From a phage, in sequence record PZ445432.1: a stretch of DNA of 64,000 nt, one strand, 5' to 3'. The notes below the pieces were generated by a model, which was not told where the DNA came from, did no database searches, and saw only the letters and a list, made by a program, of their open reading frames with translations. Below, piece by piece: positions 58,881 to 64,000 of the stretch (the first letter of the stretch is position 1; each line of letters starts with the position of its first letter). The translations under genes were made by a program, and so were the position numbers.

Positions 58881-59615
58881 ATGAATCAAGTTAAAACGAA
58901 TATTACCCGTAATTTCCCGCATGTTTCCCGCGTCATGATCTGGGATCTGGATGGCACTATCGTTAACTCATTCCATCGCGTAGCGCCTTGCTTTGATAGT
59001 GATGGTAATCTAGATCTGAATAAGTATAAAAATGAAGCGTGCAAACATGATTTAATAATGCAAGATACTTTATTGCCGCTTGTTACATATATGCGCCAAT
59101 GCATGAATGACGCAAATACTTTAAACATTATTTGTACCGCTCGACTGATGAGCAAGTCGGACTATTATTATTTGCGCAAACAAGGCTTGCGAGGGCGTGG
59201 GAATAGCAATATCCGTGTATTTTCCCGCGATACACTGCATAAGTATTTTGAAGCTGATAAAGTTAGCGAAATATACCACAGTAAGGACGCAGTTTATAAA
59301 AGCCACTACTTTGAGTTATTTAAGCAGTTATATCCGAACGCTGATTTCACGATGATAGACGATCATAAAGGTGTGCTAGCAGCGGCGGCATCATACGGAT
59401 TTAAAACGTTGGACGCGCAAGCCGTTAACGATATTCTATCAATCGGTGTTACATTGATAGGCGAAACCTTTATCGACGAATCTCTTGAGGATGATAATGA
59501 TTATCAGTTCCTAGTCGATCGCTTGCAATTATGTTGGGAAAGTATGACCGAGGAAGAACGCGCAGAATATAGTTGCAGCCCGCAACAATATATCGAGAAA
59601 CTAAAAGTTGCATAG
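58881..59615 (+). CDS. dmp: 5'-deoxyribonucleotidase (HAD family)
   Basis: MIWDLDGTIVNS HAD motif I; 244 aa from the internal ATG with GGAG RBS. Confidence 0.7.
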   Translation: MNQVKTNITRNFPHVSRVMIWDLDGTIVNSFHRVAPCFDSDGNLDLNKYKNEACKHDLIMQDTLLPLVTYMRQCMNDANTLNIICTARLMSKSDYYYLRKQGLRGRGNSNIRVFSRDTLHKYFEADKVSEIYHSKDAVYKSHYFELFKQLYPNADFTMIDDHKGVLAAAASYGFKTLDAQAVNDILSIGVTLIGETFIDESLEDDNDYQFLVDRLQLCWESMTEEERAEYSCSPQQYIEKLKVA

Positions 59616-59630
59616 TAATTAAAGTTGATA

Positions 59631-59670
59631 TTGTTTCACCTTGCAATTAAAATGGTTGCAAGGTGAAACA
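59631..59670. terminator. 15-bp perfect inverted repeat hairpin between convergent genes
   Basis: tgtttcaccttgcaa ...10 nt... ttgcaaggtgaaaca; no T-tract. Confidence 0.45.
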
Positions 59671-59790
59671 GTTAGCATGATAATAGTAACGGGGGTGGCG
59701 GTTAGCAGACTAAGTATTTTCGCCCAGCCCACTGCACCCACCCACGCGTACGTAATCCAAAGAATTTGGCAAAAGTCATTTTAGCGCTAA

Positions 59791-60330
59791 TTACCTGTTT
59801 AATTGGGCAACGTCTGGTATACTTCCTTTGAACATCTCCTGTATTGCAAAGTCACCATGAAATGTCCTTCTTAGTAAATTTGCATAATTTACGGCATCTT
59901 CTAATTCGCTATAGGGAAAGTACTTAGTAGTGCCCCTTATCAGCCCCTGTTTATCGTGTAATCTTACCATCCACTTCTGAAGTTCTTTATGCCATGTAAC
60001 ATTTAGATAGCCTGATGATGCTCTTGAGATTCTGCCATTATGATTATTCTCTGTAATTGAAGCCTCTCTTAAATTTGACCATCTATTATTTAGTTTATTC
60101 CTATCTATGTGGTCTACACATTCCTCTGGCCATCTATTCTCCATAATAACAAAAGCTACTTGATGTGCATAAGCTTTAAACCCTCGATACTTGAGCTGCC
60201 TATATCCCCTATTTAAAGTACCTGCTTCTTTACCCTTACGATTGCCGCTTTTCCAGGTAAAAACTCCAGTTTCGGGGTCATAAGCAAATACTTCTTGTAT
60301 TTCCTGTATATTTAGATTATTCTTCACCAT
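59791..60330 (-). CDS. HNH homing endonuclease
   Basis: VDHIDRNKLNNRWSNLRE HNH signature; N-terminus paralogous to the other HNH ORFs. Confidence 0.7.
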   Translation of the reverse strand: MVKNNLNIQEIQEVFAYDPETGVFTWKSGNRKGKEAGTLNRGYRQLKYRGFKAYAHQVAFVIMENRWPEECVDHIDRNKLNNRWSNLREASITENNHNGRISRASSGYLNVTWHKELQKWMVRLHDKQGLIRGTTKYFPYSELEDAVNYANLLRRTFHGDFAIQEMFKGSIPDVAQLNR

Positions 60331-60372
60331 GAACCTCCATGTGTAATCTTATGAAATTTGGCAAAAGTCAAA

Positions 60373-60618
60373 TTAGTGCATAGAAGGGTCATCAAACCTG
60401 TGTTCTGGTCTAAACTCACGGAATCTCTTCCGCGACGCCCGAGAACCATCATTCCACTCCCGTTCAAACTCCGCACGTTTCTCATCGAACTTCCGCTCCC
60501 TTTCCGCAATCTCCCGCGATACTTCCGCAATATATTTACGATGCCTGTCGATAGCCGCAGTCATCCCGAAAACTCCCGCAAGTACCCCGATAATAAAAGC
60601 AATTATAATACTAAACAT
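60373..60618 (-). CDS. membrane-anchored hypothetical protein
   Basis: N-terminal TM helix then charged region. Confidence 0.4.
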   Translation of the reverse strand: MFSIIIAFIIGVLAGVFGMTAAIDRHRKYIAEVSREIAERERKFDEKRAEFEREWNDGSRASRKRFREFRPEHRFDDPSMH

Positions 60619-60805
60619 CTAATTCCCTCTCAATTTGCAGAATACGGGTGCTACCACAACGTTGCAGTAGTACTAGCTTTTCTAGAGCAACTTGTTGTTG
60701 TTTTACTTGAGCTTCTAGAGTTTTTAGGCGAACATACGCGTTATAAGAAACAATGAAAGTTGCCCAGACTAGTATTACTATTAGTGTAGCTACTATTTCC
60801 ATCAT
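60611..60805 (-). CDS. small TM/coiled-coil peptide (tandem paralog family)
   Basis: MEIVATLIVILVW... TM helix followed by LEAQVKQQQ coiled-coil. Confidence 0.4.
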   Translation of the reverse strand: MMEIVATLIVILVWATFIVSYNAYVRLKTLEAQVKQQQVALEKLVLLQRCGSTRILQIERELDV

Positions 60806-60908
60806 TTACGCTTCTCCGTTAATAAGGTTTCAATTCTAGCTAAGTGATTATCTAAAATACATTGCCCGATAATCACAATCCCTAGTAGTGCAATAATTAC
60901 CCATTCCA

Positions 60909-61094
60909 TTATTTACGCTCCTCTAATAAAGTTTCAATTCTAGATAATCTATTGCTCAACTGCATTAATTTAACCTCTACTTGGGTTACAGAGGTATCTA
61001 TTACACGTAAGCCTACAAAGAGAAGTATTAGTAAGACGAATATGCCAATAATTACCCATTCCATTAAATCCACCCCGCCATAGCTGCTAACCAA
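60909..61094 (-). CDS. small TM/coiled-coil peptide (tandem paralog family)
   Basis: MEWVIIGIFVLLILLFVG... then RLSRIETLLEERK; a third 35-aa copy lies at ~60808-60910. Confidence 0.4.
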   Translation of the reverse strand: MVSSYGGVDLMEWVIIGIFVLLILLFVGLRVIDTSVTQVEVKLMQLSNRLSRIETLLEERK

Positions 61095-61368
61095 AAACCT
61101 ACGAAAATAAAGAATAGAATAGTTCCGAATCCAAAGCTATTAATCCAGCTATCGTACACTTCCCCACGTCTACTTTTTCTTCTGTTTGACATATCTTTCA
61201 TGCTCCTATAAGTGCGGTATTTGAAATATTCTATAACTTGTGCACAACCAACCGTGCCTATGAACTCCTAGAAGGACTTCTACTTTTCCTACCTAGTGGT
61301 TTCTGCCAGTACACCATCCGAGAAATAAAAAATTTAGTTTACTTGGATGTCTTTTTGCTTTATACTAA

Positions 61369-61635
61369 TTACAGGTAGTTAGATTGCTCTAGTTTAAATT
61401 TACAATCACCGTATTTAAGATCAAACTGACTGAGATCCCACCACCCAAACTTAGTACGGAGCTGTACTACTGGAAAGCGATCTCCCTTAATACGAACTTT
61501 TTGAACCTTGAGGCCGTAATGCTCCTCCCCAGCACCGCCAAAAGATTTTACAAATCCCGTACAAAATGGTTTGGGAGCAGGTGCACAACCAGATAACATA
61601 GCTGCGGCAACTAGTGCAATTACAAACTTTTTCAT
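61369..61635 (-). CDS. llp: Llp-like lipoprotein (receptor-blocking superinfection exclusion candidate)
   Basis: lipoprotein signal with lipobox LSGC; divergent from and adjacent to the putative receptor-binding protein gene. Confidence 0.6.
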   Translation of the reverse strand: MKKFVIALVAAAMLSGCAPAPKPFCTGFVKSFGGAGEEHYGLKVQKVRIKGDRFPVVQLRTKFGWWDLSQFDLKYGDCKFKLEQSNYL

Positions 61636-61659
61636 ATTTATCTCTCCATTTCTAATTTA

Positions 61660-61702
61660 TGAATCTATTATAGCAAAATAGAGGGATGAAAGCAAATACA
61701 TT
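61660..61702 (-). promoter_or_regulatory. conserved early sigma70 promoter driving the llp-like gene
   Basis: minus strand: aaaaatgtatttgctttcatcc ... gctataat. Confidence 0.55.
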
Positions 61703-61720
61703 TTTATAATAGGAGATTAT

Positions 61721-63508
61721 ATGGGTTTTTTCGCTGGAAAATATAGTGATGGTAAAACTGTATTATCACTAAACAAGGTGAATGGGGGGGATATTAATGC
61801 TCACAAAACTCCTAACGCCAATACTATATTTCATTCTGACATGCCATTTGTTCTAGTTGAGAGTACGTATGAGAGTGCGTTAAGTAGTGCTGGTAATGGG
61901 TTCTTTGTATGTCAAATGCCTTCTGATATAGCTAATTTAAAGAGCAACGACCCTGGTAGAGTTATACTAACCGCTGTTGAGATAAACGGTACACATAGAG
62001 CTTTTCTTAATGGTACTCAATCCCAGGTTGGGCAGTTCTCAGCATTTTTCGAGGATTTTGCTAGTGGTAGGGCTGGTGCTGAATTATCTGTAACATCTGC
62101 TTTTGCGATCGGTGATAGTTTAGCACACGGTACTTATACTTATAACTCTGGTTTAGGCCATGAGGAATCTATTGCTCGACAAGGTTCTGGGGGCAGTTTA
62201 CTACAGGCCTCTGGGTTCCTGATCTATAGACCTGGTGGTGTTTCTGCTGGTGAAGCCATTTCCAGAGCCTGGAATCTTATGGGTTTTCCAGCGGGTGTCT
62301 CTACTGTTCCTTTAGATAGTAATCACGCAGATTATTGGGAGCCTAACTGGCAGGCACCTATTGGGTCTGCTGGTAGAGGTCACAATTGGTTTTATGTTTG
62401 TAACTCCAATATTCGTGGCTTTGCAGGTAAGAAAGGTGTATTACCAAATAACGTAAACGTTATTTATAAATCCCCCGCATACCCAGAAAAAATCTATGTT
62501 TGTAGAGGTTCTACCTCTAACTTAGCGAATCAAAGTGCTAAAAAAATGATTGTACAAGATAATTTTAATGTAACTCCAACTAAGGTTATTTGGTACGTAT
62601 TGAATCTTAAGTACTCTAATGGGGGTATGAGTGTTGCTAGTAATCCCTTTACTGGATCCGATATTCATATAAGTCCATCTAACTTTACTATAAAAGGTGT
62701 TAGTCTTCCAAACACTAGCTACAAATTCATTAATCAGAATGCTTTTGGTAATTTAGCGTCTAGACCTGATATGGAGTATGTTGGTAATAACGCTGCGTAT
62801 ACCGGAGTTTTTGGTGATAATACTGCAAGATGTGAAATTGTAGGTTCTAATAAAGGCTCTTTATGGTCTCCAGTAGATTATGGTGGTTCTAAGTCTCAGA
62901 TAAGTATTTACAAATTCTCTGCTGGTAAGCAATGGTATGTTAATTCCAACAATAATACTATAGGTAATGAGCATGGAGTTGTTTGGGGACCCTCTTCAGT
63001 ACCTTTACGATTACTACCAAATAACGTAGCCAGTACTTATATAGGTGATGACATAAACCCTTCTTACCCGGGTACAGGTAACAAGTATGTAGCCTTATCC
63101 ACAGTAAGTCTTGGACTACCAAATGCAAACTCTACAGTAATCCTAACTACTGAAGTAGTTGCTGGAAATCTTAATACTGCTGGAATGCCTGTGCGTACTT
63201 ACAGTGGTAGCGCTTGGCAGGTACAAGGTAGACGTAAACAAAGTTACACAGCTGGTGATGGCATATTCCATCAAATATTAACTTTACCACCCAACCATCT
63301 AGTACCATTCCATACTACAGCTTCCTATAGCTATGCACAAACTCAGGCTAGTAGGCCTGATGATTTAACATTTACTAGAAATGGGTTTATTTATACTATT
63401 AAAAATTTGGGTAACGGTAACGTTGAGTTGGGTGTAGTTATACATGCTGCGGAAGCGGCAGCTGTTTTCTTACCAAGACTACGTGTAACAGTTCAACGCC
63501 TTACCTAA
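61721..63508 (+). CDS. putative receptor-binding tail protein (pb5/Oad-like)
   Basis: 595 aa; placed divergently next to the llp-like gene as in T5; Gly/Ser/Asn-rich beta-type composition. Confidence 0.55.
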
Positions 63509-63518
63509 AGGAGGAAAT

Positions 63519-64000
63519 ATGGCAAATGATGTATTAGTACCAGATCTTATGTCCCCTGAAGGGATGGATGTAATTGAAGCATATTTACAGTGTGGCAGCG
63601 ATGTGCCTTCTGCCGCACGTAGTCTTGGAATGTCTGAAATTGCTTTCCGAGATATTATGAATCGTAGCGAAGTTAAAAACTACTTAAATGATATTTTTAT
63701 GGAGAGTGGTTTCCGTAATAGAGATCGTTTATTTGGTGTTCTAGATGAAGTTATTAAGCGTAAACTAGAGGAACTGGAAGAAACTGGCATGGGTTCTGAC
63801 CAAGATATTATGGATATTCTCTGGAAAGCACATAAAATGAAAATGGAAGAAATGAAAATGATGGTAGAACTGGAGAAAGTGAAGGCAGCAGCCCGCACTC
63901 CAGCTAACCAGACCAACATCCAGAATAATATTATTGCTGGAGCTGGGGATCAAAACTACATGGACTTAATTACTTCCCTAGCTACTGGAGGTAAGAAGTA
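63519..64000 (+). CDS. hypothetical protein, partial (runs off window end; HTH-like N-terminus)
   Basis: GGAGG RBS; [20 protein letters not shown]-like segment; 3' end truncated. Confidence 0.45.

Follow-up and report, generated by a model that had tools for sequence, protein, structure and literature searches.

The stretch of DNA analysed here (the window, 64,000 nucleotides, PZ445432.1) comes from HildyBeyeler (Bas33), a T5-like Tequintavirus, with a 100% match to MZ501074. Short minus-strand ORFs in its right part had been proposed, in an original prediction made from the letters alone, to form a tandem array of three or four paralogous membrane peptides beside an llp-like gene. These ORFs are real, with coordinates essentially as predicted, and are the GenBank CDSs bas33_0188 to bas33_0191 of HildyBeyeler; the operon has a fifth single-TM gene, at 60373-60618 (T5.162, 81 aa), which had been missed. 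The array does adjoin llp, which is annotated as a superinfection exclusion protein and heads a same-strand block with orf1-orf4 directly downstream. The genes and repeats, in minus-strand order, are as follows.

61369..61635 (-), llp, bas33_0192, BF23-type receptor-blocking lipoprotein; phrog_1119 E 1.5e-25, LPAM_1 lipobox
61064..61192 (-), orf1, T5.159 orthologue, bas33_0191, 42 aa; annotated CDS, phrog_8596 E 1.6e-31
61046..61066 (.), upstream copy of a 21-nt direct repeat, TAATGGAATGGGTAATTATTG in minus-strand reading; stop/start junction and MEWVII codons, family D3
60909..61064 (-), extra 'long' orf2-family copy, bas33_0190, 51 aa; phrog_6369 E 1.1e-15
60904..60947 (.), 3'-end repeat of the 51-aa copy: codons for SRIETLLEERK, stop and the next gene's Shine-Dalgarno; families D1 and D4, 87-90% to 60797-60843
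60891..60911 (.), downstream copy of the 21-nt direct repeat, at the orf2 start; perfect match to 61046..61066
60802..60909 (-), orf2, T5.160 orthologue, bas33_0189, 35 aa; phrog_6369 E 2.8e-26
60797..60843 (.), 3'-end repeat of orf2: codons for ARIETLLTEKRK, stop and the orf3 Shine-Dalgarno; families D1 and D4
60611..60805 (-), orf3, T5.161 orthologue, bas33_0188, 64 aa; phrog_5851 E 2.7e-33, residues 2-64
60373..60618 (-), orf4, T5.162 orthologue, bas33_0187, 81 aa; phrog_6447 'membrane protein' E 8.4e-47

Read from the sequence, the stop/start overlaps along the five genes are 1, 1, 4 and 8 nt, with TAATG and ATGA junctions, the 8-nt overlap being that of the orf4 start with orf3, and every gene has a Shine-Dalgarno sequence, for example a GAGGAG 8 nt upstream of the ATG of the gene after the 51-aa copy. 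The five close-packed genes are probably translationally coupled. Since no promoter or terminator is annotated or was detected in the 176-nt spacer between llp and orf1, we infer that llp and the small genes share one transcript; a scan across 59600-61900 scored 8 promoter-like sites where 7.1 were expected, with 0 terminators, and RNA folding of the spacer gave z = -0.07. An ORF had been predicted at 60909-61094 and it exists, but its start is most likely the ATG at 61064 (51 aa) rather than an upstream TTG.

The array is the 'orf1-orf4' micro-gene operon of T5 (X75922, 1994; T5.159-T5.162, NC_005859; PHROGs 8596, 6369, 5851, 6447) plus one extra copy of an orf2 cassette. Identity to the T5 orthologues is 96%, 97%, 78% and 86% for orf1 to orf4, respectively, with the same order, overlaps and site between llp and the right terminal repeat; orf1, orf3 and orf4 are syntenic with T5 and the 35-aa ORF is the one 97% identical to T5.160. 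With respect to T5, the additional 51-aa copy of the orf2 family and the HNH endonuclease gene inserted after orf4 are features of HildyBeyeler. The ORFs are not new, their T5 counterparts having been annotated since 1994 as hypotheticals with the label 'contains single transmembrane domain', and the present analysis mainly tidies the annotation, by giving correct starts, the true paralogues and a clean cassette polymorphism, and disfavours two of the roles proposed for them.

The prediction that all the ORFs are paralogues, with a common R(I/L)ETLL ending and a common 3' DNA repeat, is borne out by one pair. The 51-aa ORF (60909-61064) starts MEWVIIGIF... and has an N-terminal TM followed by ~3 heptads with two [TS]x[VI]E..L motifs, and the 35-aa ORF (60802-60909) starts MEWVIIALL... 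and has a TM followed by an amphipathic tail, DNHLARIETLLTEKRK, of about 16-17 aa; their C-terminal ends are SRIETLLEERK and ARIETLLTEKRK, respectively. The phrog_6369 match covers residues 1-35/35 of the 35-aa ORF and aligns residues 1-51 of the 51-aa ORF with profile positions 1-34/35. An hhalign comparison of the 51-aa and 35-aa families scored 37.9, against 12.0±2.6 in shuffles that preserve TM and tail composition, a score reached by 0/200 of them. By these comparisons the two genes are true paralogues, and the only clear pair in the array. The 64-aa orf3 scored 26.6 against the 51-aa family (probability 72%, reached by 1/200 shuffles) and 18.6 against the 35-aa family (probability 19%, reached by 4/200), and is possibly, at best, a distant paralogue of the orf2-type peptides; it ends in RILQIERELDV and lacks the R(I/L)ETLL ending. 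The DNA repeat AATAA(G/A)GTTTCAATTCTAG likewise belongs to the 51-aa/35-aa pair (60814-60843 against 60918-60947, 87% over 30 nt), which also shares the perfect 21-nt repeat at the gene starts. Within the orf2 family the core GQCILDNHLARIE is almost invariant, Epseptimavirus included. A candidate lipobox in orf2 (IIGQC) was ruled out, with Q at -1 unsuitable, no basic n-region and no LPAM_1 match.

The two copies of the 21-nt repeat (D3) are 100% identical and are spaced by 155 nt, which is one gene unit, and in genomes without the 51-aa copy the junction falls exactly at this repeat. On the basis of these joins, the 51-aa copy forms a 155-nt cassette with the perfect repeat at either boundary, and is thus gained or lost through recombination there. 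In PS3-1 the long form is the sole orf2-type allele, which suggests that the tandem arose via unequal recombination between allelic forms. The 51-aa copy was found in 38 T5-like phage records (30 full length), ~10% of relatives, whereas orf3 is found in 315 and orf4 in 447 phage records. The orf2 slot between orf1 and orf3, with abutting stop and start, is seen in T5, 18 IMG/VR loci, SHSML-45 and Eps7, and orf2 occurs as short, long and third types among relatives.

The remaining genes differ in design. The possible fourth ORF at about 61068-61205 does correspond to a gene, orf1 (bas33_0191), but it is not a paralogue of the other small ORFs: its 42-aa product has a basic N-terminus, MSNRRKSRRGEVYDSW, and 5 K/R ahead of a TM helix that lies at the C-terminus, so that the architecture is the inverse of theirs. 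Its start is placed at 61192, the first ATG at 61201 not being kept in relatives and a GGAG lying 10 nt ahead of the second ATG. An N-terminal hydrophobic helix, expected for each ORF, is present in the 51-, 35- and 64-aa ORFs but not in orf1. The 64-aa orf3 starts MMEIVATLIV..., and its TM leads into a helical tail of 43 aa that keeps a single heptad register, with the invariant charged residues of orf3 on the e/g positions. The 81-aa orf4 has a TM with a GxxxG motif followed by a strongly charged helix, and its C-terminus takes three alternative forms among relatives. The match of orf4 to LapA_dom at E 1.4e-4, the best for the small ORFs in the Pfam, NCBIfam, PADLOC and PDB searches, falls short of the gathering score and can be put down to a TM-plus-basic composition.

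In order to predict topology we applied the positive-inside rule alone, under which net-charge differences are small. In the peptides with an N-terminal TM, 0 K/R precede the TM and the 15 aa that follow it hold 1-4 (2-4 in HildyBeyeler); the four would insert N-out/C-in in the inner membrane, with orf1 tail-anchored N-in; all soluble tails are therefore predicted to face the cytoplasm. The TM segments are clear in the small ORFs, as the original prediction held, and no signal peptide or lipobox was found in them, LPAM_1 and phrog_1119 being matched by llp alone. AlphaFold models the 51-aa copy as a single helix over residues 2-50 (pLDDT 90) and orf3 as a single helix over residues 2-63 (pLDDT 86). 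For a coiled coil we required an unbroken run of 3 or more heptads with hydrophobic residues at a/d, in excess of what shuffled sequences give, and such a pattern is present in the 51-aa ORF (p=0.0035). The 35-aa ORF gave p=0.019 over a tail of only ~1.5-2 heptads, and orf3 of HildyBeyeler was weak (p=0.088), its Eps7 orthologue being matched by 0/2000 shuffles. The heptad pattern is equally compatible with an amphipathic helix lying on the membrane surface, and in the 35-aa peptide the tail lacks the length to form a coiled coil on its own.

Within Tequintavirus, dN/dS is 0.11 for orf1, 0.12 for orf2, 0.24 for the 51-aa copy, 0.29 for orf3 and 0.22 for orf4, compared with 0.9-1.5 in most of the other reading frames, and by this measure purifying selection acts on all five. 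The order of the genes is kept across Tequintavirus and Epseptimavirus, and Eps7, Stitch and CitS1 have orthologues that are ~40-75% identical (~42% for orf3) and share both order and overlaps; the TM-plus-tail architecture is retained at 40% identity in another genus, and every gene of the operon has a start codon, a Shine-Dalgarno site and a conserved length. C-terminal conservation may partly reflect the embedded Shine-Dalgarno and overlapping next start rather than protein function. An antisense ORF at 60358-60756 was considered as the real gene and is less likely: the sense dN/dS is 0.23 against 0.33 for the antisense frame, and the Shine-Dalgarno sites, starts and TM segments are on the sense strand. 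A low antisense value is expected since the wobble positions of that frame coincide with those of the sense frame.

Outside the T5-like phages the genes are hardly seen. Searches of big databases with orf3, the orf2 family and orf4 returned almost exclusively proteins of T5-like phages, with no distant relative that carries an annotation. The 246 relatives of orf3 in a large protein database were all from T5-like phages, and a full HMMER profile scan of 1.84 billion representative proteins found just 3 orf3 clusters; orf4 formed 80 clusters in the big database, all T5-like except for two strays, a weak match in a Microcystis phage and a contig labelled Negativicutes. The latter, non-phage label belongs to a 1.7-kb contig. 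Sequence searches of the small ORFs against Pfam, NCBIfam, PADLOC and PDB gave no significant match, and at E <= 1 none of the five peptides hit a PADLOC-DB family. On these searches the operon genes are restricted to T5-like phages. The cluster is absent from the equivalent position in Vibrio phage D411 and Serratia phage Kamaji, and other Demerecviridae have unrelated genes in the interval from the RBP gene to the terminal repeat. Some members of the operon are naturally truncated, frameshifted or lost, as in MET_P1_100_107, L017, PS3-1 and S124.

Published data bear on expression and dispensability. RNA-seq of Bas33 at 20 min p.i. gives TPM values of 219/127 for llp, 162/137 for the 51-aa copy, 462/408 for orf3 and 22/13 for orf4 (10.64898/2026.01.13.699316, Table S1), the orf4 level being ~20-fold below that of orf3, and counts in the region are ~0 while the cell holds first-step-transfer DNA alone (10.64898/2026.01.13.699316). 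The region is transcribed after second-step DNA transfer, with the 51-aa copy and orf3 at llp-like levels, in a library possibly without strand information. The two shortest genes, of 108 and 129 nt, have ~0 counts (10.64898/2026.01.13.699316, Table S1), probably a counting artefact, which also affects another gene, of 123 nt. According to Decker et al. 1994, as cited by later Llp papers, llp is an early gene. In a T5 CRISPRi-ART screen T5.159-162 are absent from the 17 Fit and the named Semi-Fit genes (10.1101/2023.09.18.558157, Suppl. Text S3), and the operon genes are dispensable in laboratory culture (E. coli K-12). The ORFs had been open to refutation as not conserved, without membrane prediction and not expressed; instead they are conserved, their TM segments are clear and the region is transcribed in the Bas33 RNA-seq, so that the reading as small membrane proteins tied to llp by position holds.

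We compared the peptides with known membrane systems of similar design. Rz-type i-spanins, FtsL and GspM have a common plan of an N-terminal TM followed by a heptad-repeat helix, and sub-threshold profile matches to PHROG spanins (E 0.09-0.3), GspM (E 0.038) and, for orf4, FtsL (E 0.005) were obtained; however, those proteins are N-in/C-out with long periplasmic domains, whereas the N-terminus of the T5-type peptides is just 'ME', the positive charges come after the TM and the tails measure 16-43 aa. Alike in architecture are the Fst/Ldr type I toxins and viroporin/phospholamban-like peptides, which have 30-60 aa, tend to oligomerise and consist of one TM helix that runs on into a short charged helix in the cytoplasm, although no family match to them and no evident antisense-RNA regulator at the T5-type operon was found. 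T4 Imm and Sp and HK97 gp15 are small inner-membrane superinfection-exclusion proteins made early by the infecting phage, and the likeness here is that of small membrane proteins, with the T5-like operon adjoining the known exclusion gene llp; there is no sequence relationship (the sole PHROG exclusion family is that of llp itself, and PADLOC gave no match), and the predicted periplasmic exposure of the T5-like peptides is almost nil. Imm and Sp are also mentioned in 10.64898/2026.03.26.714494.

Envelope-acting factors had been put forward in the original prediction, for superinfection exclusion, receptor masking or a spanin-like role, and the analysis disfavours the last two. For these, the peptides would be factors of the periplasm or outer membrane that mask the receptor together with Llp or bridge the envelope as i-spanins do. 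The position directly 3' of llp on the same strand, the TM-plus-helical-tail architecture and the weak PHROG matches to Rz-like spanins (E 0.09-0.3) speak for such factors, and so does the gap between the 100-fold protection given by an llp-only clone and the >10^6-fold protection of an earlier study, for which no explanation was offered (Golomidova et al. 2016, PMC4728585). Receptor masking is at odds with the lack of a signal peptide or lipobox, with N-termini that lack positive charge and C-terminal flanks that carry it, and with the fact that T5 keeps orf1 and orf2 at 96% and 97% identity despite its non-homologous, FhuA-type llp/pb5 module and different receptor; a homologue of the HildyBeyeler llp was undetected in T5. 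As to a spanin, T5 has dedicated ones, T5.044/045, beside its holin and endolysin (T5.040-T5.045, ~90 kb from the small-ORF operon), tails of 16-43 aa would span ~2-6 nm as a helix, far below known i-spanin periplasmic domains, no o-spanin or lipoprotein partner ORF lies downstream, and the spanin HMM matches are non-significant (PHROG E >= 0.09) with no Pfam match. Taken together, the predicted cytoplasmic tails, the T5 spanins elsewhere and the lack of co-variation with the receptor module make both roles unlikely, and we give them little weight. Still harder to sustain are ORFs without function, open by chance or kept only as spacers that serve translational coupling or RNA structure: their lengths are very small, two of the ORFs have ~0 RNA-seq counts, their C-terminal codons double as Shine-Dalgarno sites and the antisense ORF 60358-60756 is open too with a dN/dS of 0.33, but the sense values of 0.11-0.29 against 0.9-1.5 in most other frames, the persistence of the TM-plus-tail design at 40% identity in another genus, and the start codon, Shine-Dalgarno site and conserved length of each gene argue strongly against this, the antisense value being explained by the coinciding wobble positions.

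The peptides could instead permeabilise the membrane or time lysis, as holin/antiholin, viroporin or type-I-toxin-like peptides that tune the membrane potential or the T-type holin T5.041. The T4 lysis system is regulated by small accessory proteins, and the T5 lysis system is T4-like (a 218-aa single-TM holin and PseT.2/3-type spanins); peptides of 35-64 aa with one TM, a charged basic C-terminus, predicted N-out/C-in topology and heptads prone to oligomerise would suit such a function. It is nevertheless improbable, as the genes are neither within nor near the lysis cassette, no holin, Fst or Ldr match was found (nothing relevant in Pfam; phrog_689 holin at E 0.66), by 20 min p.i. both the region and llp are being transcribed without premature lysis, and the CRISPRi screen reports no fitness effect (10.1101/2023.09.18.558157). 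About equally improbable is a role in modulating either an inner-membrane protein of the host or a membrane-associated anti-phage defence, of use on some wild hosts only. This would fit genes that are dispensable on E. coli K-12 yet under purifying selection, that are mosaic and variable in copy number (orf2 types, three orf4 C-termini, losses) in the manner typical of arms-race accessory genes, that lie in a locus filled by unrelated genes in other Demerecviridae, and one of which, orf4, falls in a family (phrog_6447) filed under 'moron, auxiliary metabolic gene and host takeover'. However, they do not resemble known anti-defence or defence proteins in PADLOC, Pfam, NCBIfam or PDB, no host target can be named and the dN/dS of ~0.11 for orf1 and orf2 is atypical of fast arms-race genes.

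We favour, with a probability of about 60%, the account in which the array is an llp-linked operon of selected, non-essential inner-membrane micro-peptides that would serve as receptor-independent accessory factors. The continuous TM-plus-heptad helices may self-associate or pair together into small membrane-anchored helical bundles, and the peptides would act on the inner membrane of the infected cell as accessory, non-essential factors, independently of the outer-membrane receptor used by the phage. That this activity forms a second, inner-membrane layer of lytic conversion, by keeping out the DNA of superinfecting phages or through a related change of the envelope, is a tentative guess on our part, weakened by the presence of almost no periplasmic residues to meet the tape-measure protein of an incoming phage. 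A more specific version, and a doubtful one, is a hetero-oligomeric inner-membrane complex assembled via the TM-plus-leucine-zipper helices, which would block DNA entry of T5-like or other phages independently of the receptor, with specificity tuned by copy number and orf2 allele (short, long or third); if true, it would be a new class of exclusion system built solely of peptides of 35-81 aa, and might explain the weaker protection by llp-only clones than by larger clones.

T5 is among the classical model phages, and for thirty years the label 'hypothetical, single transmembrane domain' has stayed on these four or five genes; they are conserved, selected and transcribed beside the only characterised exclusion gene of the phage. 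A literature search by gene names found no published function for T5.159-T5.162, and papers on Llp, BF23, DT57C, Cit2 and accessory-gene screens do not discuss orf1-orf4. The finding alone opens no long-standing question; if the genes were shown to be a membrane-level exclusion or host-manipulation module, they would add a layer to lytic conversion and provide a compact example of functional micro-proteins.

A possible analogue of orf3 lies in Sugarlandvirus (Klebsiella T5-like phages), where a 74-aa protein encoded beside a pb5-like gene has a MEVVIGALVLL... start and a TM plus coiled-coil tail. It scored 24.0 by hhalign against the orf3 profile, compared with 12.1±2.7 in shuffles (0/120), at a probability of only 42%. 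The Sugarlandvirus locus differs in having no llp-type lipoprotein and no homologues of orf1, orf2 or orf4, and the 153-aa TM protein that comes next is unrelated to orf4. The 74-aa gene is divergent from the RBP gene and is conserved in ~80 Klebsiella phage records.

The 2.1 kb around the small-ORF cluster match Escherichia phage HildyBeyeler (Bas33, MZ501074; Demerecviridae, Tequintavirus) at 100% identity, and subtracting 48089 from a coordinate of that record gives the window coordinate. The window ends in 482 bases (63519-64000; terminase small subunit) that repeat positions 1-482 of MZ501074 exactly, and so crosses the point where the end and the start of the deposited record meet; the gene order across this point, from pb5, the receptor-binding protein (RBP) gene of T5, to terS, is the same as in T5. 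The cluster comprises five consecutive genes, "hypothetical proteins" in GenBank, flanked by an HNH gene on one side and llp on the other.

59791-60330, minus strand, HNH homing endonuclease
60373-60618, minus strand, orf4 (bas33_0187, T5.162 orthologue), 81 aa; phrog_6447 "membrane protein", E 8.4e-47
60611-60805, minus strand, orf3 (bas33_0188, T5.161 orthologue), 64 aa; phrog_5851, E 2.7e-33
60802-60909, minus strand, short orf2 (bas33_0189, T5.160 orthologue), 35 aa; phrog_6369, E 2.8e-26
60909-61064, minus strand, long copy of orf2 (bas33_0190), 51 aa; phrog_6369, E 1.1e-15
61064-61192, minus strand, orf1 (bas33_0191, T5.159 orthologue), 42 aa; phrog_8596, E 1.6e-31
61369-61635, llp, superinfection-exclusion lipoprotein gene

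All of these PHROGs are of unknown function. The RBP gene is divergent from llp. The HNH gene lies between orf4 and dmp in HildyBeyeler, and T5 is without one there. The small ORFs are orthologues of T5 orf1-orf4, which were sequenced together with llp in 1994 (X75922) and are recorded in NC_005859 as T5.159-T5.162, "contains single transmembrane domain"; HildyBeyeler has one gene more. The small llp-linked genes are therefore already annotated members of existing PHROGs. The original prediction of short minus-strand ORFs at this site was borne out (bas33_0188-0191) but overlooked orf4, which encodes a TM segment and a charged helix, with an 8-nt overlap between its start and orf3.

Sequence comparison places the true start of orf1 at the second ATG (61192), which has a GGAG 10 nt upstream, whereas the first ATG is ACG, ATA or AGG in several relatives. 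Within Tequintavirus, Nei-Gojobori dN/dS was 0.11 for orf1, 0.12 for orf2, 0.24 for the long copy (n=4), 0.29 for orf3 and 0.22 for orf4, compared with 0.05 for llp. Most other reading frames of the orf4 locus gave 0.9-1.5, the exception being the antisense frame (0.33) that shares its wobble positions with the sense frame. The Epseptimaviruses Eps7, Stitch and CitS1 carry the same four genes at about 40-75% identity, with order and overlaps kept. A Shine-Dalgarno motif precedes every small gene and the junctions touch or overlap (TAATG, TAATG, ATGA, then the 8-nt overlap), so that translational coupling is likely. The Shine-Dalgarno motif or start of the next gene is embedded in the codons that end each peptide (…EERK, …TEKRK, …IERELDV), which may contribute to the conservation of the peptide C-termini. 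Antisense to orf4 and orf3 runs a 132-aa ORF (60358-60756, plus strand) that is open in Eps7 (annotated AGC_0171) and in MET_P1_100_107 too, and stop-free in 18 genomes. Its dN/dS is 0.33, where the sense frame gives 0.23; the ORF is probably a side effect of sense codons rich in GAR/AAR/CGN, together with wobble positions that the two frames share. Among relatives, orf4 has three unrelated C-terminal ends (window 60373-60420 and the orthologues in L004-L028, stretches of relatives' genomes), …EFRPEHRFDDPSMR, …KINGKS and …MSESGDKPVDRRSS, which indicates recombination within the gene.

The ORFs had been proposed to form a tandem array of paralogs sharing a DNA repeat. The repeat is real, with 87% identity over 30 nt between 60814-60843 and 60918-60947 (the ARIETLL/SRIETLL codons), 90% between 60797-60816 and 60904-60923, and a 21-nt repeat without mismatch at 60891-60911 and 61046-61066, but only two ORFs carry it. 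Family profiles were compared against controls in which columns were shuffled within the TM block and within the charged-tail block. Short orf2 and the long copy scored 37.9 (shuffles 12.0±2.6, 0/200 reaching it) and are, by this comparison, paralogues. The long copy and orf3 scored 26.6 (12.2±3.0, reached in 1/200), which is suggestive only, and paralogy is weak for short orf2 and orf3 (18.6, reached in 4/200). The architecture of orf1 is reversed, a basic N-terminus with 5 K/R preceding a C-terminal TM. The array was thus a real observation that was overstated: it holds two paralogues, one possible distant paralogue and one unrelated ORF, beside the missed gene.

The 51-aa gene is present in 38 phage records by tblastn, 30 at full length, compared with 315 for orf3 and 447 for orf4. 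Where it is missing, orf1 and orf2 join exactly at the 21-nt repeat TAATGGAATGGGTAATTATTG; where it is present, this repeat flanks a 155-nt unit on both sides. The first 21 nt of the long and short copies are identical and the last ~47 nt about 88% so, with a very different middle. Members of the orf2 family fall into three forms: a short one of 33-37 aa, a long one of 48-51 aa that carries a pair of [AS]R[IV]ETxL-type motifs at a spacing of 14 residues, and a third of 41 aa (MEFW…AQLEHRVKALEEKE). In Salmonella phage PS3-1 the third and long forms stand in tandem and the short one is missing. Tandem copies would have originated when allelic forms recombined unequally at the conserved ends of the gene, and the tandem state could be lost by the same route.

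AlphaFold models built with family alignments show a single helix for orf3 (residues 2-63, pLDDT 86) and for the long copy (residues 2-50, pLDDT 90). The 3-4 spacing of L/I/V in the tails was tested against shuffles, giving p=0.0035 for the long copy, 0.0015 for the PS3-1 long form, 0.0115 for orf4, 0.019 for short orf2 (17 residues only) and 0.088 for HildyBeyeler orf3; the Eps7 orf3 tail was matched by 0/2000 shuffles. Among the orf3 residues that do not vary between genera are charged ones at e/g (R26, E31, R54, E59, E61) and others at a/d (L30, Q48, I55, L62). The peptides with an N-terminal TM begin with "ME" or "MD", or have no flank, with zero K/R before the TM and 1-4 within 15 residues past it (2-4 in HildyBeyeler); by the positive-inside rule, all soluble segments would be cytoplasmic.

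In RNA-seq of Bas33 itself at 20 min post infection (2026 preprint 10.64898/2026.01.13.699316, Table S1), the two replicates without treatment had TPM of 219/127 for llp, 252/162 for the RBP, 162/137 for the long copy, 462/408 for orf3 and 22/13 for orf4, library strandedness being unstated; under a daunorubicin hold at first-step transfer, the tabulated counts for these genes were essentially zero. The 108- and 129-nt genes received about 1-2 reads each, as did the 123-nt bas33_0152, which we read as a counting artefact of genes shorter than a read. In the same table orf4 has ~20-fold fewer reads than the overlapping orf3 and the downstream HNH gene is high (TPM 525), which suggests either that the transcript is terminated or processed after orf3 and the HNH gene has its own promoter, or an artefact of counting. 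T5.159-162 are outside the 17 "Fit" and the named "Semi-Fit" genes of the CRISPRi-ART T5 screen as given in its Suppl. Text S3, where the authors caution of lower consistency beyond the pre-early region (10.1101/2023.09.18.558157). Among natural isolates, orf3 is truncated in MET_P1_100_107, orf4 is internally deleted in one relative (L017) and frameshifted in PS3-1, orf2 is absent altogether from S124, and in PS3-1 (L025 1587-2135) an HNH gene different from that of HildyBeyeler is fused to the first orf1 codons, splitting orf1. Together with the purifying dN/dS, these data point to genes that are selected but not essential.

The suggestion that the ORFs are envelope-acting factors is right only in so far as they encode small membrane proteins with a link to llp. 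Receptor masking is unlikely, as signal peptide and lipobox are absent, the tails are predicted to be cytoplasmic, and T5 orf1 and orf2 are 96% and 97% identical despite an unrelated llp/pb5 module and a different receptor. A spanin-like role is also unlikely: T5 has Rz-like spanins (T5.044/045) by endolysin T5.040 and holin T5.041, the tails are much too short, there is no lipoprotein partner and matches to PHROG spanins are insignificant. No match was found to known defence, exclusion, holin and toxin families, and multi-billion-protein libraries gave no relatives outside T5-like phages but two stray matches, a Microcystis phage (tblastn E=0.6) and a single contig of 1.7 kb with the label Negativicutes.

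This leaves an early, accessory module of the inner membrane that is inherited along with the llp locus. The peptides might tune lysis or membrane potential, or modulate a host membrane protein or defence; our preferred guess, with a probability of only about 0.3, is that they contribute to lytic conversion or exclusion at the inner membrane. A clone carrying llp alone, made with a reverse primer that stops within the first orf1 codons, is described as giving 100-fold protection, compared with >10^6-fold in an earlier study, for "reasons not clear" (PMC4728585); this discrepancy could fit a helper role for the small genes, but is only a lead. The T5 early region (L029, T5 10-30 kb) has many more small ORFs for which the annotation gives one or two TM domains (T5.020,.021,.027,.029-.031,.048,.049,.052), so that small membrane peptides are general to T5 rather than peculiar to the llp locus.

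The Sugarlandviruses of Klebsiella have, divergent from their pb5-like RBP gene, not a lipoprotein gene but one for a 74-aa "MEVVIGALVLL…" TM and coiled-coil protein, conserved in about 80 records, which scored 24.0 against the orf3 profile (shuffles 12.1±2.7, 0/120; HHalign probability 42%). There is no llp-type lipoprotein beside this RBP (L030 3842-4531, Klebsiella phage vB_Kpn_K30lambda2.2), and the locus also encodes a TM protein of 153 aa whose tail is rich in Ser. The genes at the corresponding position in Vibrio phage D411 and Serratia phage Kamaji are unrelated. These differing contents make the interval from the RBP to the terminal repeat a variable accessory slot, and bitopic peptides with predicted zippers recur in the enterobacterial branches of the family.

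In Epseptimaviruses and PS3-1, an extra acidic ORF of ~100 aa (MQDEEKSFQEP…) lies immediately upstream of orf1 (L023 1995-2309; L025 1343-1645; L026 2036-2347; L028 1995-2309), within the llp-orf1 spacer in those genomes that have llp; the S124 annotation calls it "receptor blocking protein", yet it is without a lipobox. The whole spacer folded no better than its shuffles. The first ~60 nt past the llp stop (61315-61368) are near-invariant in 16 genomes, with conservation above that of the flanking coding DNA, and include a hairpin of 8 bp (61342-61349 pairing with 61315-61322, one mismatch in HildyBeyeler) with a 19-nt A/T loop. With the A-run before it, this reads on the plus strand as a hairpin followed by a T-run, which may be a terminator for antisense transcription.
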